Source of the DNA: a virus
Lineage: Duplodnaviria; Heunggongvirae; Uroviricota; Caudoviricetes
IMG/VR virus record: IMGVR_UViG_2711768002_000004
Reading direction: 5' to 3' (one strand)
Length of the DNA: 39,841 nt
Of this stretch, positions 2,300 through 23,071 are shown piece by piece (positions within the stretch are counted from its first letter, which is position 1; each line of letters begins with the position of its first letter). The notes under the pieces are model-generated. The model was not told the origin of the DNA. It saw only the letters and a list, made by a program, of their open reading frames with translations, and did not search any database. Position numbers and translations under genes: made by a program.

Positions 2300-2554
2300 T
2301 TACATCATGGTACTGTCAGTTCCGGGCTGAGCCGGGTCTGGTTGCTCTGGCTGCGCGTCGGTTTTCGGCTCATTATCAGCATCACTGGCCGCAACTGCTG
2401 GCCCAATAAGTTTTGCCAGCACTTCATCAACGTAAGTGTCGATTTGTGCCTCAAAATCCTTGCGGACCTGCGCTTTCAGCAACTTATTTACTTCACCGGA
2501 ATACAGTGCCTGTTTTACCAGGTCTTCAGTGACGGTGCCTTTAATTTCTGGCAT
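2300..2554 (-). CDS. Hypothetical protein (84 aa), acidic/Pro-rich C-terminus
   Basis: ORF with strong AAGGAGG Shine-Dalgarno upstream of ATG at 2554; part of the cargo locus between gin and com. Confidence 0.55.
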   Translation of the reverse strand: MPEIKGTVTEDLVKQALYSGEVNKLLKAQVRKDFEAQIDTYVDEVLAKLIGPAVAASDADNEPKTDAQPEQPDPAQPGTDSTMM

Positions 2555-2589: not shown

Positions 2590-2772
2590 TCAGGGCTGGG
2601 TCGGGTCTTTTGGGAGCGGAGTTACCTGCGCTGTTTTACTGAGTTTTTCAGCTGCTGCGTCCTCAATTTTGCGGCGAACATAATTTCTGATGGCCTTATA
2701 ACCACCACTCACCAGATATAACGCACATACTGCCGTGCAGAAATACAATAAAATAAGCTGTAAAAATGTCAT
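2590..2772 (-). CDS. Small membrane protein (60 aa, one predicted TM helix)
   Basis: MTFLQLILLYFCTAVCALYLVSGGYKAIRNYVRRK...; start moved to ATG at 2772 preceded by GGGAGGG. Confidence 0.55.
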   Translation of the reverse strand: MTFLQLILLYFCTAVCALYLVSGGYKAIRNYVRRKIEDAAAEKLSKTAQVTPLPKDPTQP

Positions 2773-2916: not shown

Positions 2917-4971
2917 TTACGCGTTATTCACTTCCACCACGATACTGTCAATCAGTACCGGGTAAGTCGCATTTTTAGTGATATCGGTCACGCGCAACTT
3001 GTCTGCCGTAAACGTGCCGACCGGAGACTGCGACAGCATGAATGGTGTCCCGTCCTTACCATCAATGACCGGCGTCACCTCAATACTGTTGTTACCGGCA
3101 AAACGGAAGCCCAGCGTATGCCATTCGTTATTAAATGCGCCGAATGACCCCAGCTTCGTGTTCTGCGCCGTGTTTCCTTTGTGATACATCACGTTAAGGT
3201 CTGTGGCATCGCTCTGTACGTAGAACGATGCCAGCAGGTTATGACCGGCATTTCCTTCCAGAGTAACCCCTTGCGGCAGGGCAGAAACCGGCCAGTACAG
3301 CGCCAGTGCGTACTGATTAGCCGTAAGCGCGCCATCGAGTTTAAAACGACAACTGACAAGACCACCTTTACCCAGCAGGTCCGCACCATTACCAGCATCA
3401 TGCTCAAGGTACCAGGGGGCTCTTCCTGTTTCCTTGGTCAGTTTCATTGCCTTACCCCCGCTGGCTCCGGCATCATCCACGATTTGAGCCTTGCCACCTC
3501 CGGCAGCCCAACCCTGTGGTGTCAACCGTCCTTCAGACTCAGATGCCCGGTAAGCAAATAGCGTACTCATCGTCGTGGTGTCTGCGGGTGGCGTGGACGG
3601 TTTTGATGGTGTATCAGGTGACGGCTTCTCATCCGGTGGTGTCACGGTCTGCCCACGCATCAGTTCAGCCGTGCGCCCTGCATGGAGCATAATAGCTGAG
3701 GCCAGACGGTCTGAAATGACGCCCCTGCGTGCCCATGAGCTGAAATGGCTGTCACGCTGTGTCGAAACAAAACTGCCCTGGGTTCGGGATGCTGCACCGT
3801 AATACCCGACAGCCACAATATCCGGGTCTTCCGCCGGAGCATTCGTTGGCGTGCTCTGTCCATTCTCATCCGTCAGGAACGGTACAAAGAAAATTTTCTG
3901 TGCTTCCTTGCCTTTGTAGCCACCGTATACTGCCTCATATTTATCGGTGCCAGCGTTTTTCCAGTAATACGTGGTATCACCGCAAATCCACGGCACCGTG
4001 GTGGCATTTCCACTCACGCACTGCGCAGCAAGCGGAGCCAGGTCAGTTCTGAACTGCTGAACCATGGCCGTGAATAAACTATTATGCTGCTGGCTTCCTG
4101 AGGCAAGGTCTGCCTCTCCCTGCATCCAGACCACAGCCAGAAGTTTGTTTTTCGGGTTTTTCGCCAGCGCGACTTTGGTGCGGCTTACCAGGTCCTGATA
4201 CAGAGGTTTACCGGCCCCCCAGCGTGAAGAATCAGCGGAAGCACCGCTGGCCTCACTGAATGAGCCGTCGGCTCCAGTGGTGAATGCTGACCCGCCACGA
4301 CAACAGGGCACCAGAAGTATCCCGGCATTCTGTGGGATATAGGGAAGCAGTTTTTTGGCAATATGCAACCCCTGACCGACAGTCCCGTACTGGCCTTTTG
4401 CCAGATCAGCTTTCGGGTGGTTTATCCCGCTCATATCCTGAACATCATGCAGGCAGTGGTCTGCCGGAATGATGTCGTTGTATGTACACGACGTACCGTT
4501 GGGCGTTACCGTACTGCGGCGTGCCAGTTGCTTAATGCGTGGGTCCGGGCGGTCAAACGAATCCGGTAACGGCAGCCCCTCGCCGTAGGCCATGCCATTT
4601 GACTGACCCGCGAGAATGACAACAAAGTAATATTCCGGCTCTGAACTGCTGCCATTCGTGCTACCGGAAGGCCCGGCGTTATCCGGTGCATTCCAGTCGG
4701 AGGGCGTGAGCGTTCCGGCCACGTCAGATGTGATTGGAATGATGCCAGTCACGCCTGAACTGGTGATTTCTGCACTGGGATTACCGGATACCGGCATTAC
4801 CCATAATGGCTCTTTCGTGCTGAAGCGGATCACGCAGTCTGCGAAGGTGATCCCCCCTTTATTACCCGAAGGGCGGAAAGGGCTTTCAATAAATGCCACC
4901 GTGCCACCGGCAACCTTGACTGAAAACTCTCCGGGCATGGCGGAGAGCATTTTCCACTTGGAGTCTGACAT
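2917..4971 (-). CDS. Large cargo protein (684 aa) with SGNH / sialate-O-acetylesterase-like (DUF303-type) esterase motifs; putative carbohydrate O-acetyl esterase
   Basis: Motifs YFVVILAGQSNGMAYGEG (GQSN block) and AVVWMQGEAD (QGE block) recalled as typical of the family; Ser/Thr/Pro-rich linker and Gly-rich C-terminal ~250 aa. Sits where Mu has no gene (between gin and com). Confidence 0.6.
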   Translation of the reverse strand: MSDSKWKMLSAMPGEFSVKVAGGTVAFIESPFRPSGNKGGITFADCVIRFSTKEPLWVMPVSGNPSAEITSSGVTGIIPITSDVAGTLTPSDWNAPDNAGPSGSTNGSSSEPEYYFVVILAGQSNGMAYGEGLPLPDSFDRPDPRIKQLARRSTVTPNGTSCTYNDIIPADHCLHDVQDMSGINHPKADLAKGQYGTVGQGLHIAKKLLPYIPQNAGILLVPCCRGGSAFTTGADGSFSEASGASADSSRWGAGKPLYQDLVSRTKVALAKNPKNKLLAVVWMQGEADLASGSQQHNSLFTAMVQQFRTDLAPLAAQCVSGNATTVPWICGDTTYYWKNAGTDKYEAVYGGYKGKEAQKIFFVPFLTDENGQSTPTNAPAEDPDIVAVGYYGAASRTQGSFVSTQRDSHFSSWARRGVISDRLASAIMLHAGRTAELMRGQTVTPPDEKPSPDTPSKPSTPPADTTTMSTLFAYRASESEGRLTPQGWAAGGGKAQIVDDAGASGGKAMKLTKETGRAPWYLEHDAGNGADLLGKGGLVSCRFKLDGALTANQYALALYWPVSALPQGVTLEGNAGHNLLASFYVQSDATDLNVMYHKGNTAQNTKLGSFGAFNNEWHTLGFRFAGNNSIEVTPVIDGKDGTPFMLSQSPVGTFTADKLRVTDITKNATYPVLIDSIVVEVNNA

Positions 4972-5056
4972 CGTCTTTTCTGCCTGTTTCTGAATTAAAC
5001 AGAGTCAGAATAGCGACCGCTGAAAAATATGTGTTTTGCGGAAATTCAAAAAAGCG

Positions 5057-5629
5057 TCACGGTACTTTTGGTGACGGAGCTGGTGAGGCAGGAAAATAAC
5101 GATAAAGGGTGGAAAGGCCAATATCAAATATCAGTGCGATTTGTTTACGGGACTCGCCATTAGCCAGCAAACGGGCGATTTGCTCCCGCTCTTTCTCTGT
5201 CAGTTTCTGAGGTCTGCCGCCATGACGCCCCTGAGCACGGGCAGCAGCAAGACCCGCGCGTGTACGTTCAATAATGAGTTCCCGCTCCATTTCCGCCAGC
5301 GCGCCCATTATATGGAAAAAGAAACGTCCCATGGGAGTGGATGTATCAATATTGTCCGTAATGCTGCGGAAGTTAACGCCGCGTTGCCGGAGTTCTTCTG
5401 TTAAAAGGACAAGGTGCTGCATACTGCGTCCAAGGCGATCCAGTTTCCAGACCAGCAGGGTATCCCCTGGCCGGAGTCGCTTTAATGCGCGTTTAAGTCC
5501 GGGACGCTCCCTTGTCTTACCGCTTATTCTGTCTTCGAAAAACAGCTCACATCCTGCACATTCCAGCGCATTTCTTTGTAGCGCCGTATTCTGGTCATTT
5601 GTTGACACCCTGATATACCCAATCAGCAT
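5057..5629 (-). CDS. gin: Serine recombinase DNA invertase (Gin/Hin/Pin/Cin family)
   Basis: MLIGYIRVSTNDQNTALQ...VWKLDRLGRSMQHL...MGRFFFHIMGALAEMERELIIERT...STLYRYF: catalytic Ser region and C-terminal HTH of the Gin family; adjacent to the invertible tail-fibre segment. Confidence 0.9.
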   Translation of the reverse strand: MLIGYIRVSTNDQNTALQRNALECAGCELFFEDRISGKTRERPGLKRALKRLRPGDTLLVWKLDRLGRSMQHLVLLTEELRQRGVNFRSITDNIDTSTPMGRFFFHIMGALAEMERELIIERTRAGLAAARAQGRHGGRPQKLTEKEREQIARLLANGESRKQIALIFDIGLSTLYRYFPASPAPSPKVP

Positions 5630-5694
5630 ACGATTTCCTTATTATAAAAAGCCGGAATTGTCGCATGAGGAATAAAACAGAGTTAATCCTGGCT

Positions 5695-5720
5695 TTCCTG
5701 AAAACCTCGGTTTACGGGAA
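5695..5720. other. gix-like recombination site (left)
   Basis: TTCCTGAAAACC-TC-GGTTTACGGGAA resembles the Mu gix 26-bp site as recalled (TTCCTGTAAACC GA GGTTTTGGATAA); sits at the outer edge of the inverted repeat. Confidence 0.6.
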
Positions 5721-5830
5721 ACGGTAAACAGGGCGGCGAATGCTCTGCCATCGGACGGCACCGCCGTTGCCGCGAATAGACTCGCCACCCCAAGAAATAT
5801 TAATGGGGTTCCCTTTGACGGGACGCAGGA
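5703..5830. repeat. Inverted repeat, left copy, of the tail-fibre crossover region
   Basis: Reverse complement of 6902-7028 is near-identical to 5703-5778 (one mismatch seen) and to 5798-5830, with a diverged ~20-bp stretch between; compared by hand. Confidence 0.85.
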
Positions 5831-6068
5831 CATAAACATCACTTCTGGTATAACACAGCAGGATGCGGATTCCCGATATATCCAGGATATCAGGCTGGGA
5901 GCAGAGAACAGGCAGGTAATGTACGGTGGGGCATATTACTCTGCGTACGGTAATGTTATGGCAGGCCTGCAGATTGACAGTAAAGTTGATGCTTCAAACG
6001 ATTTTATAGCATTCAGACCCCTGCAAAAATTAGTCGGAGGTACATGGATTACGGTATCTCAGTTATAA
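5709..6068 (+). CDS. Alternative tail-fibre C-terminal coding segment (S'-like), currently in the silent orientation (no own start codon)
   Basis: Plus-strand frame reads ...[46 protein letters not shown]...FRPLQKLVGGTWITVSQL*; the first ~40 aa repeat the tail-fibre constant region, the tip is distinct but related to the expressed tip. Confidence 0.65.
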   Translation, partial: GLRETVNRAANALPSDGTAVAANRLATPRNINGVPFDGTQDINITSGITQQDADSRYIQDIRLGAENRQVMYGGAYYSAYGNVMAGLQIDSKVDASNDFIAFRPLQKLVGGTWITVSQL

Positions 6069-6119
6069 ATAGTCAGTAAATAATATATTTTAAAACAGAT
6101 TTATTTCCAGGAGGATTTT

Positions 6120-6641
6120 ATGGAACTAAAAAATATAACCCGTTATTATCCTGAAAATATGCCATATGGTAATAATGTTCAGTATTTCCAGAGTGAAGAT
6201 GGTAAGGATTTCTACGAATCCCTGCCATTATTCACCAAAAAATATAAACTTTGCATAACACCTGACAGCGGCGTTATCTGCTCAATATCACAGGACGCCT
6301 CGGCGCTGTATCCTGCGGGGTTTTCTGTGGTTGAGGTCGATGAACTCCCTGAAGGCACGGATATTTCAGGAAACTGGAAGTTTGATAATGGCATAATCTC
6401 CCGTATTCCGGTTAACTACGCAAGAAAACTGGAAGCAATGCGCCAGTCATATCTTAATCAGGCATATGAAAAAATTAATGACTGGAGAACGGAGCTACAA
6501 CTGGGCACCATCAGCGATGAAGACAGAGCAGCACTTACCCAATGGATGGCATACATCAGTCAGGTGAAGAAAATGGAACTACCCGCCATTAAAACAGAAG
6601 CTGAATTTAACGCCATTAAATGGCCTGAGCAGCCACAGTAA
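6120..6641 (+). CDS. Tail fibre assembly protein (Tfa / Mu U-like chaperone), co-oriented with the silent fibre tip
   Basis: 173 aa, AT-rich gene directly downstream of the alternative fibre segment; C-terminal ...DEDRAALTQWMAYISQVKKMEL resembles Tfa proteins. Functional guess from context and memory. Confidence 0.7.
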   Translation: MELKNITRYYPENMPYGNNVQYFQSEDGKDFYESLPLFTKKYKLCITPDSGVICSISQDASALYPAGFSVVEVDELPEGTDISGNWKFDNGIISRIPVNYARKLEAMRQSYLNQAYEKINDWRTELQLGTISDEDRAALTQWMAYISQVKKMELPAIKTEAEFNAIKWPEQPQ

Positions 6642-6672
6642 TAAAGAAGGCCGGAAGGCCTTCTGAATATCA

Positions 6673-7554
6673 TTATATACTTGCAGCCGTCACCCATGCT
6701 CCATTTAACAGATACTGCAACGGCCGGTAATACACGCCGCCGACGTTATCTGCCGTATTCTTACCGACATCCTGTACTTTAATTCCGGTAAGAACATTGC
6801 CGCCCCCCAGATTCAGATCCCAGCTTTCCCATGTTCCGGGCATATGTGCGGTCACCGACCCCAGTCTTATGGCGGTTACTGTTCCTGATGAGATAGTGAT
6901 ATCCTGCGTCCCGTCAAAGGGAACACCATTAATTGTGTGGGCATTTGCCAGCCTGTTCGCGGCAACGGCGGTGCCGTCCGATGGCAGGGCATTCGCCGCC
7001 CTGTTTACCGTTTCCCGTAAACCGACGTTATCGATAAAAGCCCCTTTATCCGGAATGTCTGCGCCGTTCTGCTCCCTGCGCAGGTAACGGTTATCACCTT
7101 CGCTTTTGCTGTAAACATCCAGATTATTACGGGCGGTTCCCTTATTCTCCAGGTCGGCGAGATTCTGATCCTTCGCCAGGGCATTAACGTCAGCGGGACC
7201 AAGACTGTTTTTTGTGGCAAGCGTCCCCAGACCAAGATAACCACGGGCCAGACGCTGGGCCTCCGCACCGGCATCAGCAATTTCTTTCAGGTTATTTTTC
7301 CGGGAAAAGGCATTCGCAGCGATAATGGCTTTAATGGACAGCGTAAGCTGGTTTAACTGCGCCTTATCCGGCTGAATACTGGCTTCAGCCAGAATATTCA
7401 GCAGTTCGGCCTGGAGAATATTCAGCCAGTCCTGACCAATCCAGCTGATACCTTTTTGTCCGTCACCTTCGGTAAACCAGGTGGTGGTATTACTCTGCGC
7501 CGGTGCCAGCGCAGGCATATTCGCCACGCCGGAATTATTATCAACATGAAACAT
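6673..7554 (-). CDS. Tail fibre protein (Mu S-like; constant N-terminal part plus currently expressed variable tip)
   Basis: Follows the baseplate genes; contains the crossover-region peptide [23 protein letters not shown]...[12 protein letters not shown] that is repeated in inverted orientation at 5709-5830. Confidence 0.8.
6902..7028. repeat. Inverted repeat, right copy (inside the tail-fibre gene)
   Basis: See left copy; hand comparison of reverse complement. Confidence 0.85.
7012..7037. other. gix-like recombination site (right)
   Basis: TTCCCGTAAACC-GA-CGTTATCGATAA; inverted relative to the left site. Confidence 0.6.
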
Positions 7555-8114
7555 TAAATAGTCTCCTCTTCATGGCTGTTTGCATAAACGTAAATAAACG
7601 TCTGCCATGCAGGCTTATAACGGTTCAGAATACATTCCAGCGCACCGCCTTCATAAATACGCAGCGGCGTGAGAATATCATCCAGCACATTCATATTCCG
7701 GTAGCCGGTTTCACTGTTAATCGTGACAATACTGACCCACTGCGAATCCGGTGAGGGCTGAATGTCAATCTGATAACCAAACTCCGCCGCAAACCGGATA
7801 TAAAATTCACGGTTCAGCGAGGGCTTCATCCGGTATTTATTTCCGGCATAACGCTGTCGCTCCGTGAGGGTGGCTCCGGCCATATCACACTCGGGAAGCC
7901 CGAGATAACGCTCCCAGTCTTCCAGCAGCAGGCGCGACGTGTCAGGGAAACGCTCGGCAAGCAGCTGTTTACCCGTCCAGGATACACGCGCTGTCGAATG
8001 ACTGAGGCCCAGACATAATGATGCCAGTACGGATGACGGACGCTTGTCCCATGCCAGCCCGTCAGGCAGTAACTGCAACAGGGCGCGCTGATGCGGGGTC
8101 AGGGTTACAGCCAT
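7554..8114 (-). CDS. Tail/baseplate protein (Mu gp48-like, P2 gpI-like)
   Basis: 186 aa; position between the baseplate J-like gene and the tail fibre; start overlaps the downstream gene. Confidence 0.65.
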
Positions 8115-9187
8115 GTGATTTCTCCTACCGTCAGCAGCTCACTGTCTCCCGCCTGAACTGACGTCAGCGGACTGCGCACTTCAAAATCCTCCAGATTTTT
8201 CACCCCTGCCACCGCCCGCCAGAAAGACGACGGCAGAACCAGACCGCCGGGCCGGGATTCGTTATACAACAGGTCGGTCAGCGCCTGTTTTACGGCCGCC
8301 TGATTCTCCGGTGTTTTCGGGATGATCCTGATGCTGAAGGGCACCGGCTTATTGGTCAGTTTAAACACGGTCACCGTCGGCCCCAGAGGCTGTCCGACAG
8401 GCTGGCCGGTCGCCGGATCATCATGACTGCGGATATAATCCGCCACCCGCTGAACATCACCGTCACCGGGGAAAATATCCGGGTTATTATCCTGAACAAA
8501 CGTTACCCCCACGCTGCCCGCCTGCGGCCATTCCGGGCGGCACCATGCCCGCGTCACGCCCGGCACTTCACGCGCCCAGCGTTCAAAATCATACTGCGTG
8601 CCGCCGGACGGTGGATTCTGCACCCGGAAAACCAGACGGGAAAGCAGCTCCGGCACGGTTTCCACATCCGCACCACCGGTGATCCCCGTTCCGGTCACCG
8701 TGGCCGTCTGGTTGATCCCCGCCTGCGGTGTGATAAATGTCAGTTTTGTCCCTGCCGGGGCATTCCCCGCACGACCGGCACTTTCGGCTTCCACACTGAC
8801 ATTCAGCGTACCGGCCTTACCGGTCAGGGAGGTGGTGATACGGTAAACCACGCCATCACTTCGCTGGAGAAGCACACCTTCCTTGATCCCCGCATCCGTG
8901 GTCAGCATCAGCTGAACCGGCCCGTCCCCCCGAGAGGCAGGCTTACGCATGACGCCCCAGAATGCACAGTGTTTCAGCAGTTCGGCTTCATCGGCTTCGG
9001 TCGGGATGATCTGACGCGCAATCCAGGCCAGATGCTCATGCTCCTGAGCAGATAACCCTGCCTGAGCGTAAGCAATGGCATTCAGGGTGGTTTCATTCAC
9101 ACCCGGCTGCGAGCCGGGCAGGCGCTGGCTGATATCCTGCTGTGTCTGCGTGATTAACTGTGCCAGCGGTAAAGGCTGATAAGGCAT
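8105..9187 (-). CDS. Baseplate J-like protein (Mu gp47-like)
   Basis: 360 aa; position and size; translationally coupled to neighbours. Confidence 0.75.
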   Translation of the reverse strand: MPYQPLPLAQLITQTQQDISQRLPGSQPGVNETTLNAIAYAQAGLSAQEHEHLAWIARQIIPTEADEAELLKHCAFWGVMRKPASRGDGPVQLMLTTDAGIKEGVLLQRSDGVVYRITTSLTGKAGTLNVSVEAESAGRAGNAPAGTKLTFITPQAGINQTATVTGTGITGGADVETVPELLSRLVFRVQNPPSGGTQYDFERWAREVPGVTRAWCRPEWPQAGSVGVTFVQDNNPDIFPGDGDVQRVADYIRSHDDPATGQPVGQPLGPTVTVFKLTNKPVPFSIRIIPKTPENQAAVKQALTDLLYNESRPGGLVLPSSFWRAVAGVKNLEDFEVRSPLTSVQAGDSELLTVGEITWL

Positions 9188-10231: not shown

Positions 10232-11345
10232 AGCTGATCCCCTGTTTTTTCATCTGCTGGCGAATAAAGGCATCAACATCGTCACCGGAACCACCCCGGC
10301 CCTTACTGTCCGGCTCTGCCGGAACGATAAAGCCGTCACGCGGTGCCAGTACCAGCCGGGTGACTTCCCCGTTATGTTCATCAAGTAAAAACTCCACCTG
10401 ACAGACCAGCAGTTCAGTCTGTTCTATACCGAAACGCAGGGCTGAAACACCGGTCAGCAGATTGACATCCCATAACCGGCCATCATCCCGGAACCAGCCA
10501 CGCACGGTGGCAGAAAACCGTTCTGAACGGGCAATCGCACGGCGCATTTCACGCAGGGCACGCTGCCGTGCACCGGTGGTGTCTGTCTGTTGATCGGCGA
10601 GGATGATTTTCGACCGGTAGCGGCCGATCTGCTCATCACTGATGACGCCCACAGGTGCTGCCAGACGGGCGGCGGATTCGCTGTCTCCCCGTTTGCCACC
10701 ACCGCGCCCGTGTCCCCGGACACGGTATTCGCTGTATCGTCCTCGCCAGTCCGTGTTGTAATCGGCATCAAGCAGGTTATCTCCCAGCACCAGTCTGTCC
10801 GTCTGCTGGCTTCCTGCCTGGGTGAACACCAGATCGCCGTCAGCATTACTGGTCACCAGCACCCCGCGATGCCGGGCAGCACGGGTCAGCGCATCCGCCA
10901 CGGTTTCTGAGTTTTCCAGCGTAAAAGAGCTGAAGGGGCGTGCAGCCGTGTCGTCGTTAACCTGCCAGCGCACGGCTATCCCGAAGGGCGCACATAAATC
11001 TGCGGCAATCTGTGCCAGCGTCCGGTTGCGCCACTGGCTGCCGGGATGGATGGCGGCACAGTCCACCAGGTCGCCGGTTTTATCCCGACCGCTGATGCTG
11101 ATCTGATGACGGGTTGCACTGATCCGCTGACTGACCTGATCCAGCCAGCCACTGATGACCGTCTGCCCGTTAATTCTGAGCGTCAGGGACTGACCGGTTC
11201 GCAGGGCTGAGGGGATGCGCTCACCGGGCAGCATCAGCCCCAGTTCAAACGACCCGGCCAGATGCTCCAGCGAGCGACGGACGCTGACCGTCAGCCAGCC
11301 GGAAAAAATACTGCCACCGATATACAGTTCAATCCTGCTGCTCAC
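10221..11345 (-). CDS. Baseplate hub / tail protein (Mu gp44-like, P2 gpD-like)
   Basis: 374 aa; MSSRIELYIGGSIFSGWL... ; position after the DNA circulation gene. Confidence 0.7.
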   Translation of the reverse strand: MSSRIELYIGGSIFSGWLTVSVRRSLEHLAGSFELGLMLPGERIPSALRTGQSLTLRINGQTVISGWLDQVSQRISATRHQISISGRDKTGDLVDCAAIHPGSQWRNRTLAQIAADLCAPFGIAVRWQVNDDTAARPFSSFTLENSETVADALTRAARHRGVLVTSNADGDLVFTQAGSQQTDRLVLGDNLLDADYNTDWRGRYSEYRVRGHGRGGGKRGDSESAARLAAPVGVISDEQIGRYRSKIILADQQTDTTGARQRALREMRRAIARSERFSATVRGWFRDDGRLWDVNLLTGVSALRFGIEQTELLVCQVEFLLDEHNGEVTRLVLAPRDGFIVPAEPDSKGRGGSGDDVDAFIRQQMKKQGISFDE

Positions 11346-12687
11346 TGATCACCTCCACGCTGCGGCCACCCGGAACAAAAACCGGATCGGGGATATTGTT
11401 TCTGCGGACAAAATACTGCCAGCGACTGCTGTTGCCGGTGGCACGGTACAGCGTGACCAGTGCCGGTTCGGTGGTGCGAACCATGACCTGAAAAGCACCG
11501 GGAAGATGCACGCTCCGTGTGGTTAAATCTTCTGTCAGCGCAAGCCCTGCATCACGTAATGCAAGGGCAGTCCCGGTATAGCCCTGTGCGGACAGATCCA
11601 GCACCTGTTGTTCCATGGCATCGCTCAAATCCCGGTTGATACGCTGCACATCAGCAGAACTTTCCAGCCAGGCCAGTCCGCCCGAACGGTCAGTATCCTG
11701 AACGTGCGTCGTATTCTGCCGGATGACCTGATCCAGCAGTTTTCCGAGCGTCTGTGCCTGCGACACCAGGGTTGCACTCTGCATCACGCTCCGCAGCAGA
11801 CGGATATTTTTCTGTGCCGCAGGCGTCAGGCCAATCAGGCGCTGTGGATCATCCTGTTCGCTGAGGGTGTAACGCAGGGAGGAAAGTGTGCGGTACAGCT
11901 GCGGCATGGCCTGCTCTGCCATGCTGTCACGGTTTGTGGTCAGGCTGCCGGACGGCGTTCCGGCTTTTCCGGTCAGAGACAGGGAAGGATCGCCGGGCAG
12001 CCCGGTCAGCACGGCAAACATTCCGGCCAGCGATTCAGCCATGCGACGGGGCGCATTAATCAGGGCGGCGGCATTGCCTTTCAGGGCAGTAAAACTGGCC
12101 GTAAAGGCACTGATATCCTGCACAATCCCCATCCCCGAAACGGCATTCTCCAGTGCATCAATCTTATCGCTGATGGTGTCGGTCATGGCCTGTACATCAT
12201 GCAGACCGTCTGAAATCACCGTCCAGCCGTCTGAAAGCGTGTTAAACAGCTGATTCATTGCTGAGCCGCTTTTCTGCTCCAGCGCAGCTGCCGTATCTTC
12301 TGCCACCGCAGGGGCGGTATCGTCACTGGCGGGGATCACGTTGATCGTGAACTCAACCGTTCCCTGCTCGCTGGCGTTATAACGGCTTTCAAAGCTGTTT
12401 ATCAGCACGTTTAACGTGCCGTAATCCGGGTGCATCAGTTCACCGGCACCGGGTGCACGCAGCGCATCACGCAGGCGGCTTCGCTGTGTCTGAAGATCGT
12501 CTCCGGTCACCAGAACCGTGAATGTGAACTCCGGGAGTTTTGGCCCCAGATCATCCGCACCGCCGCTTTCACGCAGTGGGTATTCACGGCGCACAATGTT
12601 ACGTCCGCCCCGTTCCCGCTGCTCCTGATAAACCAGGAACGGTACGCCACGAAAGGAGCCACGCCCCGGCGTGTCAGTAGAGGCCAT
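11329..12687 (-). CDS. DNA circulation protein (Mu gp43-like)
   Basis: 452 aa directly downstream of the tape measure gene. Confidence 0.7.
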   Translation of the reverse strand: MASTDTPGRGSFRGVPFLVYQEQRERGGRNIVRREYPLRESGGADDLGPKLPEFTFTVLVTGDDLQTQRSRLRDALRAPGAGELMHPDYGTLNVLINSFESRYNASEQGTVEFTINVIPASDDTAPAVAEDTAAALEQKSGSAMNQLFNTLSDGWTVISDGLHDVQAMTDTISDKIDALENAVSGMGIVQDISAFTASFTALKGNAAALINAPRRMAESLAGMFAVLTGLPGDPSLSLTGKAGTPSGSLTTNRDSMAEQAMPQLYRTLSSLRYTLSEQDDPQRLIGLTPAAQKNIRLLRSVMQSATLVSQAQTLGKLLDQVIRQNTTHVQDTDRSGGLAWLESSADVQRINRDLSDAMEQQVLDLSAQGYTGTALALRDAGLALTEDLTTRSVHLPGAFQVMVRTTEPALVTLYRATGNSSRWQYFVRRNNIPDPVFVPGGRSVEVISEQQD

Positions 12688-14731
12688 AGTTCCCTCCGTT
12701 CCAGACGTTCACATCCAGGCCATGCTGTGCGGTATCATCCACATCAATACTGCGCGCCCGCCAGCCTTCAGGGGCAACAAGCTCCACCCGTGCGGCGGTT
12801 TTCGCGGTGGCCTGTCCGCCGTTTTCGTCACTGCCGCCACGCAGTTTCTGCCAGGCCTGCGTCAGCCAGCCCCCCAGATAATCACCGAGATAGCTGCCCA
12901 CCGTGGAACCAATGGCAACCCCGACCGGACCGGCAGCCGCCCCCAGCGCGCCACCGGCGATACTTCCGGCAAGGGAACCCACGGCACCGGCTTTATCGGC
13001 TGCACTGGCGCTGCTGTCCAGCAGTACAGGAGCCGCCATGGCACCGGCCCACAGGGCACCACCACCCAGCCGACCGGCACCACGGAACAGCCCGGCAAAA
13101 CGCCCCAGCCCCATGCGGTTTCCGGCCGCCGTTAGCAGACCACCGGCACGGCTCATCATACGACCGAAGAAGCCCTGTTTACCGGCACTCTCCGCCAGTT
13201 GCTCACCGGCAGTCACGACGGTCGTGACACCCCGTCCACGTCCGGGGCCGCGTTTTTTACGGCCGCGCACGGTTTTGCCGTCACCGCTGACCACCACATC
13301 CCCGCCACCTGAGGCCAGGCCACCCGCAGGCCAATTGGTGACCAGCACGGGCTGAACGGCAGCCGGATTTACCCCGGTAAGGAAATTCAGGAACCGGCCA
13401 GCGCGTCCGGGCTGCGTTCCCGGTACAGTGGTCTGCGGTTTGCGGAAGGGCGACGTCAGCACGGAGGTCATCGCCATGCCATAGCGTAAGGGGGTTGCGC
13501 CGAGACGTAATGCCCCCGTCCCCGCAAACCTGAGCACCTTCAGCGCACGGGAGGCGAGATACATATACATCAGGTACTTTGCGGCGGTCTGCGCACCCTG
13601 ACCAATGCGATCCAGCGCATCGCCATAACCGGCGTCGCGCAGTGCCTGAAGCGTTTCCCTGACTTTCTGAATGACCCGGTAAAAGCCGGTCGCAGCGTCT
13701 CTGGCATACTCAAATCCCTGATTCAGGGCTGAGGCCGTCTGTGTGGCCAGCTTATCCTGTAAGCCGCTTTTCTGTGCCGCATCAGCATAATCCAGAAAGC
13801 CTTTCAGGCTCTTTTTCAGGCTGTCAAACGGTCCCTTTGCCATCACCTCGCGGGCAAATCCGTCCCAGACATCGCCCATCATGGACGTCATTCCCGTCCA
13901 GGAATTCATGGCGTTTTTCTGGGCACCTTTTGCCTGTTCGGCCATCACCTGAAATAACAGGCGAATGCTGTCCGGTCCCAGTTTTCCTTTCTCGCCTTTC
14001 TCACGGATGATCTTCTGGTTTACACCCAGCTTATCGGCCAGCAACTGGTAAACGTTAATCCCGTATCCGGTCAGAATATTGGCGTCCGCTGCCTGGATAC
14101 TCTGGCGGGCAAACATCTGTTTGAGTTGCAGGGACGCACCCTGTGCATCTGACAGTGACCAGCCGTGATAGCCGCCCTGATCCTGAAGCATGGTAATAAA
14201 GCGACGGGCTTCCCTGTCACTCATACCGAACCCGCGACTGGAGGCGTATTCCTGCATAACCCCCGCCAGCCCCCAGGTGGTGTCTTTGGCGTTCTGTACC
14301 GCCCAGGCTTTCACTGCTTCCGTTTTTGCCGTATCGCCATGATTAATGGCGTTGAGACGCAGAATATAGTTCTCCATCTCTGCGGCCGGGCGGATAAAGG
14401 CTTTATTAAACCCGTAGACCGCAGCCCCTCCCGCCAGCATCCCGTAAAGGTTGCTTATCCGCCCGATGGTGCCGGTAATGCTGCCCTGAAGGCGGTCAAA
14501 ATCTGACGTCACCGTGCGGATACTGCCACGAACACCGGCAAGCGTTCGCTGCATACGGGAGCCGACAAGTTCTGTCTCCTGACCGGCACGACGTGCTGCA
14601 TTTCCAAGACCACCCAGCCCCGTCCTGCCGGAACGGGAGAATGCCCCCAGCTCCTGTGACCACTGGCGGGATTTGGCAGAAATATTGCCGAGTAAATCGA
14701 CAATCAGGGAGGCTTTCAGGTTTTTTGCCAT
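12674..14731 (-). CDS. Tail tape measure protein
   Basis: 685 aa, Ala/Gly-rich with long Gly-rich C-terminal stretch; follows the chaperone/tube/sheath genes. Confidence 0.8.
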   Translation of the reverse strand: MAKNLKASLIVDLLGNISAKSRQWSQELGAFSRSGRTGLGGLGNAARRAGQETELVGSRMQRTLAGVRGSIRTVTSDFDRLQGSITGTIGRISNLYGMLAGGAAVYGFNKAFIRPAAEMENYILRLNAINHGDTAKTEAVKAWAVQNAKDTTWGLAGVMQEYASSRGFGMSDREARRFITMLQDQGGYHGWSLSDAQGASLQLKQMFARQSIQAADANILTGYGINVYQLLADKLGVNQKIIREKGEKGKLGPDSIRLLFQVMAEQAKGAQKNAMNSWTGMTSMMGDVWDGFAREVMAKGPFDSLKKSLKGFLDYADAAQKSGLQDKLATQTASALNQGFEYARDAATGFYRVIQKVRETLQALRDAGYGDALDRIGQGAQTAAKYLMYMYLASRALKVLRFAGTGALRLGATPLRYGMAMTSVLTSPFRKPQTTVPGTQPGRAGRFLNFLTGVNPAAVQPVLVTNWPAGGLASGGGDVVVSGDGKTVRGRKKRGPGRGRGVTTVVTAGEQLAESAGKQGFFGRMMSRAGGLLTAAGNRMGLGRFAGLFRGAGRLGGGALWAGAMAAPVLLDSSASAADKAGAVGSLAGSIAGGALGAAAGPVGVAIGSTVGSYLGDYLGGWLTQAWQKLRGGSDENGGQATAKTAARVELVAPEGWRARSIDVDDTAQHGLDVNVWNGGNYGLY

Positions 14732-14858
14732 GGGTTACTGCTTCGTTCTGAGAATTTTTTCGGTCTGTCGGCAGTGCCGGTAAAGCTGCGATAAGGGGAG
14801 GTTAAGCGCCCACTCCGGGCCGCTTTTTGTCACCATCCCCAGCACAATTGCGGCTTCT

Positions 14859-15335
14859 TCAATCTGATCCCGGCACTGCATCTGGTCGCCCCCGTTCAGC
14901 GACCAGCTTTCCGGCCATCGCGGAATCAAGCAGGCTTACTGCCGCCATCAGTCGGGAGAGATCGCGCTCGCTGAGCTGTCCTATCTGACGCGGAGACAAT
15001 GGCCCCTCAATCTGGCCGACAGCGGCAATCTGACGGCGCAGCAGCGCAATGCCGCGCAGTGCCGGTGAGGCCACAAGAACCGGACCGTTTCGGGTTTCCA
15101 TAAGACGCTCGGCCTCGCTCTCCGCATCAATGCTGTCTTTTGCCGTCAGTTCGCGGAAGGTGACGCGGTATTCACGGGATTCCCCGAACGGCAGACCGTC
15201 GAGCAGATCCACATAGCCGTTCGCCAGTTGTTCAGCCAGCCCGGCGGTGCGGGGATCGCCGTCTTCAAGTGCATCCCGGATAGCCTCCATCACGGCCTCG
15301 TCAGAAACCGCCGTTTTTTTCTTACGTGTGCTCAT
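14859..15335 (-). CDS. Tail assembly chaperone (Mu gp41-like); a possible +1 frame extension is the ORF at 14735-14929
   Basis: 158 aa acidic protein between the tube and tape measure genes; a second ORF in another frame overlaps its 3' end. Frameshift is an inference, no slippery site identified. Confidence 0.5.
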   Translation of the reverse strand: MSTRKKKTAVSDEAVMEAIRDALEDGDPRTAGLAEQLANGYVDLLDGLPFGESREYRVTFRELTAKDSIDAESEAERLMETRNGPVLVASPALRGIALLRRQIAAVGQIEGPLSPRQIGQLSERDLSRLMAAVSLLDSAMAGKLVAERGRPDAVPGSD

Positions 15336-15349
15336 TACATTTTTCCTGA

Positions 15350-15715
15350 TTACTGGACACGGGTACTGGTGGCGCTGGCGAACTTCGCGGAGATATCACC
15401 ACCACCGTCAAGCGAGGCCGGTTCACTGCTCCAGGCCTTCGTCATCATGTGGACTTCACCGGTATCGGCCACGAACTCAATCGTGACCGCAGTCCAGGTG
15501 TTGATTTCATCGGCAGCCGGTGAACCTTCTCCGCCCGCCGGGAATTTACAGTCCAGCGTCGCCTCACGGGGTTTCTCGCGATAGCCGTAAACTTTCGCGC
15601 CTTTCACCACTTCACGCTCAAAGCCGGACGGGGAGAACGTGGCCCCCTCAAGGGTGTCGTACTCCTGCCCGTTCACACGGATGGTGGCCGTGCCCTGATA
15701 CTGTTTTCCGCTCAT
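15350..15715 (-). CDS. Tail tube protein (Mu M-like)
   Basis: 121 aa immediately downstream of the sheath gene. Confidence 0.7.
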   Translation of the reverse strand: MSGKQYQGTATIRVNGQEYDTLEGATFSPSGFEREVVKGAKVYGYREKPREATLDCKFPAGGEGSPAADEINTWTAVTIEFVADTGEVHMMTKAWSSEPASLDGGGDISAKFASATSTRVQ

Positions 15716-15723
15716 GCCTTACC

Positions 15724-17226
15724 TCACAAAATGAAACGGATCTGCGCGGCCATGAAGCGGAACTGGTTAACCAGATCCGGTGTACACATCACATCCAGAC
15801 GGTTACGGTCTTTTGTGTTGCGCTCCACGAGCAGATTCTTTTTAAAGGTGTCCAGATTTTCGACCAGTCCCAGATCCACCCATTCTTCCCCCAGCGAAAT
15901 TAACTGAAGTTTCATGATCTCCGGTGTCACGATATTCTGACCGGCACGAACGGGCGTCCCGTCATCAGCCAGTTTATGGCGCGGAAAACGCTGCGTGATA
16001 AAGGTGCGCAGGGAATAACGCAGATATGACAGGGTGTAGATGGTTTCCACATCCAGATAGCTGGGATCGATTTCGCCGTATGCATTCTGACGGTACATCG
16101 TCACCTGACGTTCAATCTGCACCACATCCGCGGCCGCGACGGTCACCGTGGACATGCCGGTATAAAGCAGGCTGTTTCGCTCTTCCCGCGTCAGACGATC
16201 CGGTGCTTCAGGTGCCATACGGGCAGGCAGCGCCAGTGTCTGTAATGGTCGGGCCGGATCCGTTGACAGGGAGGGCGCACAGACCGCACAAATGGAGGCA
16301 GCCCAGACATAATCCGGCTCTGGTGCTTTAGGAATAGAAGTGCAGGTAAACAGGAAGTCATTACGGGATTCACCAAAACTGGTTGCCGTACCGAAGGTGC
16401 CGGTATGCGCCATCCAGACCATACCGTCCGACATTTTTACCGGTCCCCAGCGTTTCAGCAGTTCATCCGCCAGAATTTTGAGATTTGCCGCATCCTTATA
16501 GGGCATGACGATGTAGTTGTACTGACGATTCCCCATCCCTGAGACGCTACGGGTGATATCGGGGTTTGTTGCCTTCTGTGTTGGCGCGACGAGCTCCAGC
16601 GTAAGACCGGCCGGTGTAGTTTCACCGTCATAATAGTTCACCCGTAAATCATGAGCTGAGCATTCACCGATAAAGCGGGCGTTAACCCCCATGCTGCCTT
16701 TAAGTCCTTCAGCATTATCACCACTGACTTCAGCTGCGATAGCAGTGAATGGCGCATCAGTGTCAGCGTTAATGACCTTAGCCAGCTCTTCCACAAGCTC
16801 TTTACCTTTTTTCCCCTTACTGACGGGCAGGAGGTAACGGCGACCGCCGATGTAAACACTTAACACCCCGTCTGCCAATGCTGTTCCAATGATATTCATC
16901 ACGCATGCCCTGGACTGACCTGTTCCAGCCCCCTGTGCAATGGCATATAACTCTGTGTCAGGGTTAATGGCGATAAATTCCTCTACCATCAGTGCAATCA
17001 TGGAACCTCGCCCCCAGAGTTCTCTTGCTTGTGAAGCTCGGGTAATACGTACTGGTACATCAAGCTGACCGCGCCCCTGAATGGTAGTGTCTTTCATTGC
17101 AGCCTGACCAAACAACAGTACCGCCTGACGCTGTGGTGGAGTGCCGGTCACGGCCATTGAATTATTGATTTCAATCTGTACCAGCGGAATGCGATTGTTA
17201 TCGCCGATATAATCAAAGTTAATCAT
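15724..17226 (-). CDS. Contractile tail sheath protein (Mu L-like)
   Basis: 500 aa; size and position. Confidence 0.85.
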   Translation of the reverse strand: MINFDYIGDNNRIPLVQIEINNSMAVTGTPPQRQAVLLFGQAAMKDTTIQGRGQLDVPVRITRASQARELWGRGSMIALMVEEFIAINPDTELYAIAQGAGTGQSRACVMNIIGTALADGVLSVYIGGRRYLLPVSKGKKGKELVEELAKVINADTDAPFTAIAAEVSGDNAEGLKGSMGVNARFIGECSAHDLRVNYYDGETTPAGLTLELVAPTQKATNPDITRSVSGMGNRQYNYIVMPYKDAANLKILADELLKRWGPVKMSDGMVWMAHTGTFGTATSFGESRNDFLFTCTSIPKAPEPDYVWAASICAVCAPSLSTDPARPLQTLALPARMAPEAPDRLTREERNSLLYTGMSTVTVAAADVVQIERQVTMYRQNAYGEIDPSYLDVETIYTLSYLRYSLRTFITQRFPRHKLADDGTPVRAGQNIVTPEIMKLQLISLGEEWVDLGLVENLDTFKKNLLVERNTKDRNRLDVMCTPDLVNQFRFMAAQIRFIL

Positions 17227-17504
17227 CAGGACGTCCCCTTATCTGATGCTGCGGTTTTTTCAGCCACCGCCGCAGTTTTTTCTGCTACCGCTCCCGCTGG
17301 TTTTGCCGCCGCGCCGGTATTAGCAGTTGTGGCAGCCGGGGCAGGCTCCGCCGTTTTATCCACCACAATGACGTCGCCATCATTAAGACGGCGGCACCAG
17401 AACGGAGTGAAGGGTTTCTCTTCCCCGTCCTGAGAGAGCGGAGTCATCGTGTCGGGATCGCGGATCAGGCATCCCGGCGCAGGTTTAATAAAAATGGTTG
17501 TCAT
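17226..17504 (-). CDS. Hypothetical tail/head completion protein (Mu gp38 position)
   Basis: 92 aa, Ala-rich C-terminus; translationally coupled to the sheath gene. Confidence 0.5.
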   Translation of the reverse strand: MTTIFIKPAPGCLIRDPDTMTPLSQDGEEKPFTPFWCRRLNDGDVIVVDKTAEPAPAATTANTGAAAKPAGAVAEKTAAVAEKTAASDKGTS

Positions 17505-21618: not shown

Positions 21619-21739
21619 ATTGCCTCCGCATAAAGGATGAATATAAAATAAACAGGCGGTCAGTGTACGCTTAACTGGTAAAGTCGGTGCCTGCCTCCGG
21701 GTGGATCATGTATGCGGGTTCGACCCCCGCCACTGACCG

Positions 21740-23071
21740 TTAATCAATTTGTCCTTCCAGCACCTCAAGCATTCCGCCCCGGATATCCGATTTCAGCTTA
21801 TCCATATTGATAACCCGGTAAGCATTCACAATCACATCCAGTTTGTCGGGCTGACGTTTCAGACTGTACGGTGCATTAACGGCAATCTGCACACTGCCAT
21901 CCTGATTTTCCACGATATACATCAGATTGTTGTGCCGTTTGTCCCACAGTACCGCTTTTGGCCTTGCCAGCATTGCCGGTAAGCGCCCGAAGTCCTCCGG
22001 CGTCAGAGCGATGCCGTCATTCTGATGTTTCACACTGTCCGCATGGAGCACATTTTTACCGCTCATCGCCAGCAGGCGGGCCGGTGGCGTTCCCGTCCGG
22101 CTTTCCACTGCCTGCGCAATGCTTTCAGTCATAAAGCCCAGCGTGCGGATATCGTTACCACCTCGCCGGGTCTGCATGATGTTTTTTGCCCAGATGCGGA
22201 ACGCCAGCTGCCGCTCCGGGCTGTTGTTCATCTCCTGAACCACCATTTCCCGTAACGCCGGGCTTTTCACCTCGATCAGTTTGCGGATCAGCGCCTGGTC
22301 TGTGCCGAACGCTGCCGAGCCGGGGTTATATGACCAGCCCACATCCGGTGTCATGGTTCTGGCGCCATCTGAATATGTGGTCACCGGCATTTCTCTGACT
22401 TCTCCGGTCTGTTTATCCACGCCAGCCTCAACATTGCGGGTGGAGAGATGATCCTCACCGGATGAAACGGATAACCCCATTGCATCCAGACGGGCCTGAG
22501 ACAATGGCCGCACACGGCAGCGGCAGTTCCAGCCATTGGGCGGGTAGTGTGTTTTCCAGAACGGATCGTCATAGCGGAATACCAGACCGTTAAGGGCGGA
22601 ATGCGACGGGCGGGTACGGCTGTCCATGACCGCCACATACTGCCAGAACGGATGCGTGTCCGTGTTGTTCATCATCTGCGTGTAACGCCCGGCATTGTAA
22701 GCCACACGGGTGTTCACGTTGTAAATCAGCGCCAGACGACGGGGACTGCCCTGCTGCACTTCTTCCGCGTTACCGTCGCTGTCCACCACAATCTGCTTTC
22801 CCCACCATCCCAGCTTTTGCAGGCGTGGCGTCAGTGTGCGGATAAATTCTTTCTGTGAAATCCCCTCATCAATGGCCCGCTGCACTTCGGCCTGTAATGT
22901 GGTTACCACATCCAGCCGTGCCGTTTTTGCTGCCGTGAATGAGCGGGCATGAACATCCGCGTCTGTTTCGAACCAGTTCCAGCTGATATGCGCCCCTTTG
23001 GCGCGGAAGTATGCCACCGTCTCTTTTGAGGGAAGCGTGGCGGCATAACCTAAATCAATCCCCTGAGCCAT
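21740..23071 (-). CDS. Head morphogenesis protein (Mu F-like)
   Basis: 443 aa; contains NGWNCRCRV motif I recall from the Mu F family; follows the portal gene. Confidence 0.8.
   Translation of the reverse strand: MAQGIDLGYAATLPSKETVAYFRAKGAHISWNWFETDADVHARSFTAAKTARLDVVTTLQAEVQRAIDEGISQKEFIRTLTPRLQKLGWWGKQIVVDSDGNAEEVQQGSPRRLALIYNVNTRVAYNAGRYTQMMNNTDTHPFWQYVAVMDSRTRPSHSALNGLVFRYDDPFWKTHYPPNGWNCRCRVRPLSQARLDAMGLSVSSGEDHLSTRNVEAGVDKQTGEVREMPVTTYSDGARTMTPDVGWSYNPGSAAFGTDQALIRKLIEVKSPALREMVVQEMNNSPERQLAFRIWAKNIMQTRRGGNDIRTLGFMTESIAQAVESRTGTPPARLLAMSGKNVLHADSVKHQNDGIALTPEDFGRLPAMLARPKAVLWDKRHNNLMYIVENQDGSVQIAVNAPYSLKRQPDKLDVIVNAYRVINMDKLKSDIRGGMLEVLEGQID

Follow-up and report, generated by a model that had tools for sequence, protein, structure and literature searches.

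The G segment of bacteriophage Mu has the organisation S-U/U′-S′, with a tail fibre assembly (Tfa) chaperone of its own for each orientation. The C segment of P1 and the P segment of e14 are likewise served by Gin-family invertases (cin and pin) that flip alternative fibre 3′-ends; the P1 inverted repeats are longer and code for common fibre sequence, and both segments have a tfa gene for each orientation. Tfa chaperones are usually viewed as cognate partners of one fibre tip and, as a result, host-range engineering of phages and tailocins normally moves fibre and Tfa together. The locus described here is in the 39,841 nucleotides of IMG/VR virus record IMGVR_UViG_2711768002_000004 (the window), a Mu-like prophage in which mom and com lie on the left, transposase genes lie on the right and the minus strand carries the late genes. 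A 1.3 kb segment, bounded by two crossover sites between positions 5695 and 7037, contains two alternative fibre tips and one tfa gene, and is almost certainly a working Gin-type fibre switch with a single chaperone gene. It is a functional miniature homologue of the Mu G segment in an apparently intact Mu-like prophage, and a compact variant of a well-known system; earlier work already mentions an invertible region in its prophage family. A literature search found no paper on the missing second chaperone, nor one describing one-Tfa segments.

An earlier note, made from the sequence alone, had suggested that the segment ends in gix-like sites, and these 26 bp sites do align base-for-base with Mu gixL and gixR. 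The invertase-proximal site (5695-5720) is TTCCTGAAAACC-TC-GGTTTACGGGAA and the fibre-proximal site (7012-7037) is TTCCCGTAAACC-GA-CGTTATCGATAA, with the central dinucleotides inverted (TC/GA) and the inner half-sites identical. The 19-nt core pattern has exactly two matches in the window, one per strand, and none in 100 shuffles. In the alignment to the Mu G region, the fibre-side site reads TTATCCAAAACCTCGGTTTACAGGAA in Mu and TTATCGATAACGTCGGTTTACGGGAA in the window, and the bases flanking the site inside the segment are also conserved with Mu (ACGGTAAACAGGGC). The inverted repeats placed by the same note at 5703-5830 and 6902-7028 are real, with measured arms that extend from 5700 to 5848 and from 6884 to 7032. 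Each arm consists of two blocks, one of 86 nt (5700-5785/6947-7032; 93% complementary) and one of 50 nt (5799-5848/6884-6933; 84% complementary), and the left arm codes for the common start of both tips. These repeats, at about 150 bp, are much longer than the 34 bp repeats of Mu and SfMu (PMC4406740).

The invertase gene adjacent to the segment (5057-5629, minus strand; 190 amino acids) is transcribed in the direction away from it. Its assignment to the Gin family is borne out by Resolvase (1.6e-51) and HTH_7 (4.9e-15) Pfam domains and by 74% identity to Mu Gin over 184 residues; the N-terminus is MLIGYIRVS, with the active-site Ser9 present. Gin-type systems have a Fis-dependent recombinational enhancer towards the 5′-end of the invertase gene. 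The 5′ coding DNA here matches Mu gin at 47 of 60 positions over its best block, and the two genes have a Fis-like 15-mer in common at +77; the second Mu Fis-like match is absent from the window gin under a strict consensus, as judged by sequence comparison.

The tail-fibre gene in its expressed state (6673-7554, minus strand) encodes 293 amino acids. The constant N-terminal part (7026-7554, minus strand), which lies outside the segment, is 47% identical to Mu S residues 1-191 and matches PDB entry 5YVQ_A (9e-46) and phrog_1833 (7e-141). The variable part that follows, tip A (6673-7023, minus strand), is a homologue of the Mu S′ tip (E=2e-10). On the plus strand, at the opposite end of the segment, a silent cassette (5709-6068; 119 codons plus stop) encodes tip B, a homologue of the Mu S tip (E=3e-13). 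The two tips had been described as short, related and ending in an RPLQ-L--G-W-T motif, and this motif fits the C-termini of both, the silent tip ending in FRPLQKLVGGTWITVSQL. Tip B is separated by an AT-rich spacer (6069-6119, plus strand), which carries an AGGAGG ribosome-binding site, from tfa (6120-6641, plus strand; 173 amino acids). The tfa gene is therefore arranged head-to-tail behind tip B, co-oriented with it, and is at present antisense to the fibre gene, tail-to-tail against tip A across a G+C-rich hairpin (6645-6664) that separates the two convergent stop codons. This hairpin is predicted, from its score, to function as a terminator for the fibre transcript.

The Tfa protein has a Caudo_TAP domain (PF02413; 69.2 bits against a cutoff of 22.1, 4.8e-19) and matches phrog_136 (4.7e-56) and the Mu U chain 5YVQ_B (4e-16). 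All six-frame open reading frames (ORFs) of the 39.8 kb window were searched with a profile of four Tfa proteins. The sole match was the ORF that contains tfa (6084-6638, E=2e-74), with no second Tfa below E=1 in this set, and the RefSeq annotations of identical prophage copies agree on one tfa. The suggestion that the locus has only one chaperone gene, co-oriented with the silent tip, is thus upheld, as is the contrast drawn with Mu, and the pairing of each tip with its own Tfa that typifies segments of the Mu G and P1 C type is not found here.

In other respects the resemblance to Mu is extensive. The crossover sites and adjoining inner sequence are homologous to those of the Mu G segment; the two loci have a common gene order (gp47, gp48, fibre, segment, gin and com/mom); and Mu U and U′ are 28-32% identical to the window Tfa. 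Together, the matches of site, Gin, fibre and Tfa identify the locus as a true homologue of the G segment rather than merely an analogue. It differs from the G segment in length (1.3 kb versus about 3 kb), in having one rather than two tfa genes, in the gap that precedes tfa (51 bp versus 2 bp between S and U in Mu), and in fibres of 293 and 296 residues rather than the 504 of Mu S, the window fibres being shorter because the central shaft is missing.

Recombination of the two inverted 26 bp sites by the Gin-family invertase would flip the 1.3 kb segment and so fuse the constant 5′-part of the fibre gene (175 codons) to tip A (293 amino acids, the present state) or to tip B (296 amino acids). 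When 5709-7023 was inverted in silico, the fibre ORF stayed open, giving a protein of 296 residues that ends in tip B and is followed by tfa in sense. Both orientation constructs were then searched against 5,426 complete E. coli genomes, counting records at ≥80% coverage. The window orientation is present in 20 records, 17 of them at ≥99% identity, and the flipped orientation in 6, of which 4 are matched as single pieces at 99.7-99.9% identity, in agreement with the earlier proposal that the segment is an invertible switch. E. coli DLI.5a (NZ_CP103972.1) and TOE17 (NZ_CP069093.1) each have two prophage copies, at different sites and with opposite switch orientations, and FORC_029 and FORC_069 differ in orientation from NCCP 13983 in assemblies of near-equal length. 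IMG/VR contigs likewise show both orientations. Such database orientations could in principle be assembly artefacts from a segment that no longer inverts, as inverted repeats can confuse assemblers, a consideration with nothing specific to this locus. We regard this explanation as scarcely credible, given that the invertase ORF is intact, with Ser9 retained and both sites likewise intact, that the flipped segment is matched over its full length and in one piece in complete genomes, that two strains have one copy in each state and that, in addition to the window tips, two other cassette pairs described below (D|E and D|C) occur in both orientations. The evidence from these records that the segment inverts is indirect but strong. 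The locus is read as a working switch because the sites align with those of Mu and have no further match in the window, the invertase has 74% identity to Gin, the reading frame is kept on inversion, both orientations occur and the structural genes are intact. Also counted in favour of this reading is the documented behaviour of a relative, Sp18 of E. coli O157 Sakai, which is packaged and makes Mu-like particles (PMC2669165).

The backbone of the prophage family to which the window belongs is common, being present in 236 of the 5,426 complete E. coli genomes (about 4%), including that of the O157:H7 strain Sakai as Sp18. The Sp18 backbone (locus L005) has 80-90% nucleotide identity to the window, and this prophage also has two tips, one tfa and an invertase; its invertible host-specificity region was noted in 2009 to be ‘distinct from those of Mu’ (PMC2669165). 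Prophages of the Sp18 type differ from the window in having tips D|E instead of A|B, and a Tfa that is 61% identical. When every locus retrieved was translated from the conserved inner half-site into the segment, five tip classes, A to E, emerged in the family. All five are homologous, to each other as well as to the distal Mu S and S′ tips (E≤2e-6), with class C 58% identical to the Mu S tip and tips B and C 32% identical to each other; a genome scan with a narrower tip alignment gave five loci. Every family locus examined has one tfa, co-oriented with a B, C or E tip, and the tip opposite the tfa-linked tip, here termed the orphan tip, is always A or D, in the combinations A|B, A|C, D|E and D|C. 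The class of Tfa at 85-91% identity is paired with tip B or C, and the 61% class with tip E or C. The one-chaperone layout is, therefore, a conserved family trait and not a peculiarity of the window copy. Orphan tips are intact in all lineages and are the part of the locus under the strongest purifying selection, with ratios of non-synonymous to synonymous substitution (dN/dS) of 0.05-0.17 (dS up to 1.2); the values for tfa are 0.10-0.23. With the layout conserved in the family, both orphan tips and tfa under purifying selection, and the tail genes of the window all intact, the chaperone asymmetry is not decay.

One-Tfa segments are also not rare in nature, as judged by approximate hand counts of 80 loci with an invertase fetched from IMG/VR. 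About 28 of these have the classical arrangement with two convergent Tfa genes, about 22 belong to the same prophage family as the window and about 12 have one Tfa with other tip types. The classical two-Tfa layout is also found in E. coli FDAARGOS_1059. The prophage in which Milman et al. 2023 confirmed inversion by long reads (CP066032.1) was considered as a possible family member and rejected, as it is a classical two-Tfa prophage of the Mu type. Two further loci have related layouts. A Mu-like prophage of Citrobacter braakii ATCC 51113 (L048, 3590-7460), related to the window, has an invertase beside the segment, three tips, one Tfa of 229 amino acids and three gix-like sites (at about 4238-4271, 4604-4681 and 6565-6642); the expressed fibre of 472 residues has no sense-oriented Tfa and there it is a D-like tip that is linked to Tfa. 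From its sequence, this locus looks like a small multiple-inversion system. An IMG/VR contig with a P2-like tail module (L073, 3603-6588) has, beside an invertase, a 1.68 kb segment bounded by hix-like repeats (TTCTTAAAAACCTTGGTTTGGGGGA); its expressed tip lacks a Tfa, its silent cassette consists of a tip plus Tfa, and its tip folds are unrelated to those of the window.

Several family members are derivatives locked in one orientation. Loci L003 (3065-4711), L014 and L015 (both at about 3340-4990) have one common deletion junction, the deletion having taken the tip linked to tfa and, of the invertase gene, everything except the final ~28 codons. The fibre is thus fixed on tip A, with an intact, convergent, antisense tfa. 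The dN/dS of tfa in these loci is 0.15-0.20, with a binomial excess of synonymous change at p≤5e-4. Complete genomes related to the locked loci are those of E. coli M1, M3, M18 and CI5. Across the family, the spacer that precedes tfa is 51-121 bp long. In loci with the C-type spacer (125 bp upstream of tfa; L002, L003, L007, L014, L015, L089, L092 and L104), the 60 bp next to tfa are only 0-10% divergent, versus 15-20% at tfa third codon positions, and are far better conserved than the distal spacer. As separate observations, the C-type spacer contains a palindrome, CTGAAATA-N5-TATTTCAG, about 65-85 bp upstream of tfa, and in the locked loci a perfect TATAAT arises at the junction, about 100 bp upstream of tfa.

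As both tips belong to the family of Mu S/S′ distal domains, the switch presumably alternates receptor specificity. The chaperone asymmetry raises the question of how the orphan tip folds. We prefer to regard the single Tfa as a generalist chaperone for both tips, a reading to which we assign a probability of roughly 0.45-0.5. With tip B expressed, the late-operon transcript would include tfa; with tip A expressed, tfa transcription would need a putative promoter, inside the segment upstream of tfa or on the invertase side. What sets this family apart is that, judged by homology, its orphan tip shares the fold of tips that depend on a chaperone in Mu. All of the tip classes are homologous to the Mu S/S′ tips, and in Mu it is the distal moiety of the fibre that Tfa binds (PMC9608196, on which, with PDB entries, our statements on Mu Tfa rest). 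This favours a shared Tfa and argues against the main alternative, namely that an A or D tip folds and trimerises without Tfa, with inversion toggling between a bare and a Tfa-assisted, perhaps Tfa-capped, fibre. That alternative, possible but doubtful in our judgement, gains from the layout of the unrelated P2-like locus L073, from the terminator-like hairpin that would end the fibre transcript directly after tip A and from the Mu structures, in which S was solved with U while the S′ fibre (8JU3) was deposited as a single chain, with no U′ chain in the PDB. Outside the family, A- or D-like tips are nonetheless each directly followed by a sense-oriented Tfa gene in five other contexts (L023, L046 from E. 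albertii, L047 from Succinivibrio, L049 and the C. braakii locus L048), which indicates that the A/D class is not intrinsically chaperone-free. A shared Tfa is further favoured by the reassortment of Tfa variants and tips, by the retention under purifying selection of an intact antisense tfa in lineages locked on tip A, which also counts against Tfa-free folding, and by the 51-121 bp spacer, versus 2 bp in Mu, with the conserved tfa-proximal 60 bp of the C-type spacers. The presence of tfa adjoining tip A in 26 of 26 E. coli records with tip A is counted on the same side. Set against a shared Tfa are several points. The fact that tfa always adjoins tip A could be due simply to their linkage. 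In all four cassette combinations the orphan belongs to class A or D, so these two classes may be special, as Tfa-free folding would have it; the restriction is, however, also explicable by descent, with cassettes exchanged via recombination in the common flanks. No match to a sigma-70-like promoter was found on the tfa strand across 4900-7700, which equally counts for Tfa-free folding; manual inspection of the spacers for a tfa promoter gave weak candidates only, and a short-word comparison of the region upstream of tfa with all other parts of the prophage, among them the sequence upstream of com/mom, gave no common motif above chance. The conserved 60 bp may partly reflect recombination break-points, as in L092, and as the prophages are mosaic, the divergence of the locked lineages need not all post-date the deletion.

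Explanations other than a shared Tfa and Tfa-free folding are, taken together, unlikely. The orphan tip might rely on Tfa supplied in trans by other resident prophages, several tfa genes being usual in an E. coli genome and lambda Tfa being able to replace gp38 of T4. The C-terminal domains of Tfa are also conserved across phages (Tfa alignment; PMC9608196). Such a supply would, however, be unreliable after infection of a new host and would leave the retention of an own, antisense tfa in the locked lineages unexplained, so that we consider this improbable. Even less probable, to the point of being very unlikely, is that the tip-A orientation is a non-productive ‘off’ state, or a remnant, and that only tip B with Tfa gives infectious virions. 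The lack of a sense-oriented chaperone in the tip-A orientation is as this would predict, but the strongest purifying selection in the locus is on the orphan tips, which are intact in all lineages, lineages locked on tip A persist and diverge, and the state in which the orphan tip is on is the commoner in assemblies. If divergent tips do share one Tfa, as we prefer, or if one tip needs none, the rule of one tip, one cognate Tfa would be relaxed, and either outcome would define a minimal 1.3 kb host-range switch. The segment and the 0.57 kb invertase gene form a compact, two-state host-range module that is conserved and under selection.

Upstream in the late operon, on the minus strand, the fibre gene is preceded by a baseplate J/gp47-like gene (8105-9187) and a Mu gp48-like gene (7554-8114), so that the order on this strand is gp47-like, gp48-like, the 293-residue fibre, the invertible segment, the 190-residue serine recombinase and a gene for an esterase-like protein of 684 residues. 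In RefSeq (NZ_AP022815.1), the silent tip (5694-6068) is annotated as a pseudogene, ‘incomplete; missing N-terminus’, and the expressed fibre (6673-7554) as a ‘hypothetical protein’; invertible cassettes are systematically misread as decay by automated annotation. NCBIfam has no specific model for the fibre, Tfa or esterase. In the annotation of the JE86-ST05 copy of the prophage (L131), 99.1% identical to the window, com is frameshifted, as are the circularisation gene and the genes for tape measure, tube and sheath, whereas in the window the tail genes (11329-17231) are open and com also reads through. RefSeq lists a ‘tRNA-OTHER’ at 21664-21743, the compared copy being JE86-ST05; the window has no tRNA according to ARAGORN. 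A run of 122 N at 561-682, at the left end of the prophage, makes the junction with host DNA unreadable there. Between the invertase gene and com/mom, the 684-residue protein (2917-4971, minus strand) has a SASA carbohydrate-esterase domain and a C-terminal DUF6645, and is followed by a DUF1378 gene (2590-2772, minus strand) and a DUF826 gene (2300-2554, minus strand). This trio adjoins the switch in all relatives, whereas Mu has nothing in this position between gin and com, and it resembles the NanS-p esterase region of Stx and lambdoid prophages.

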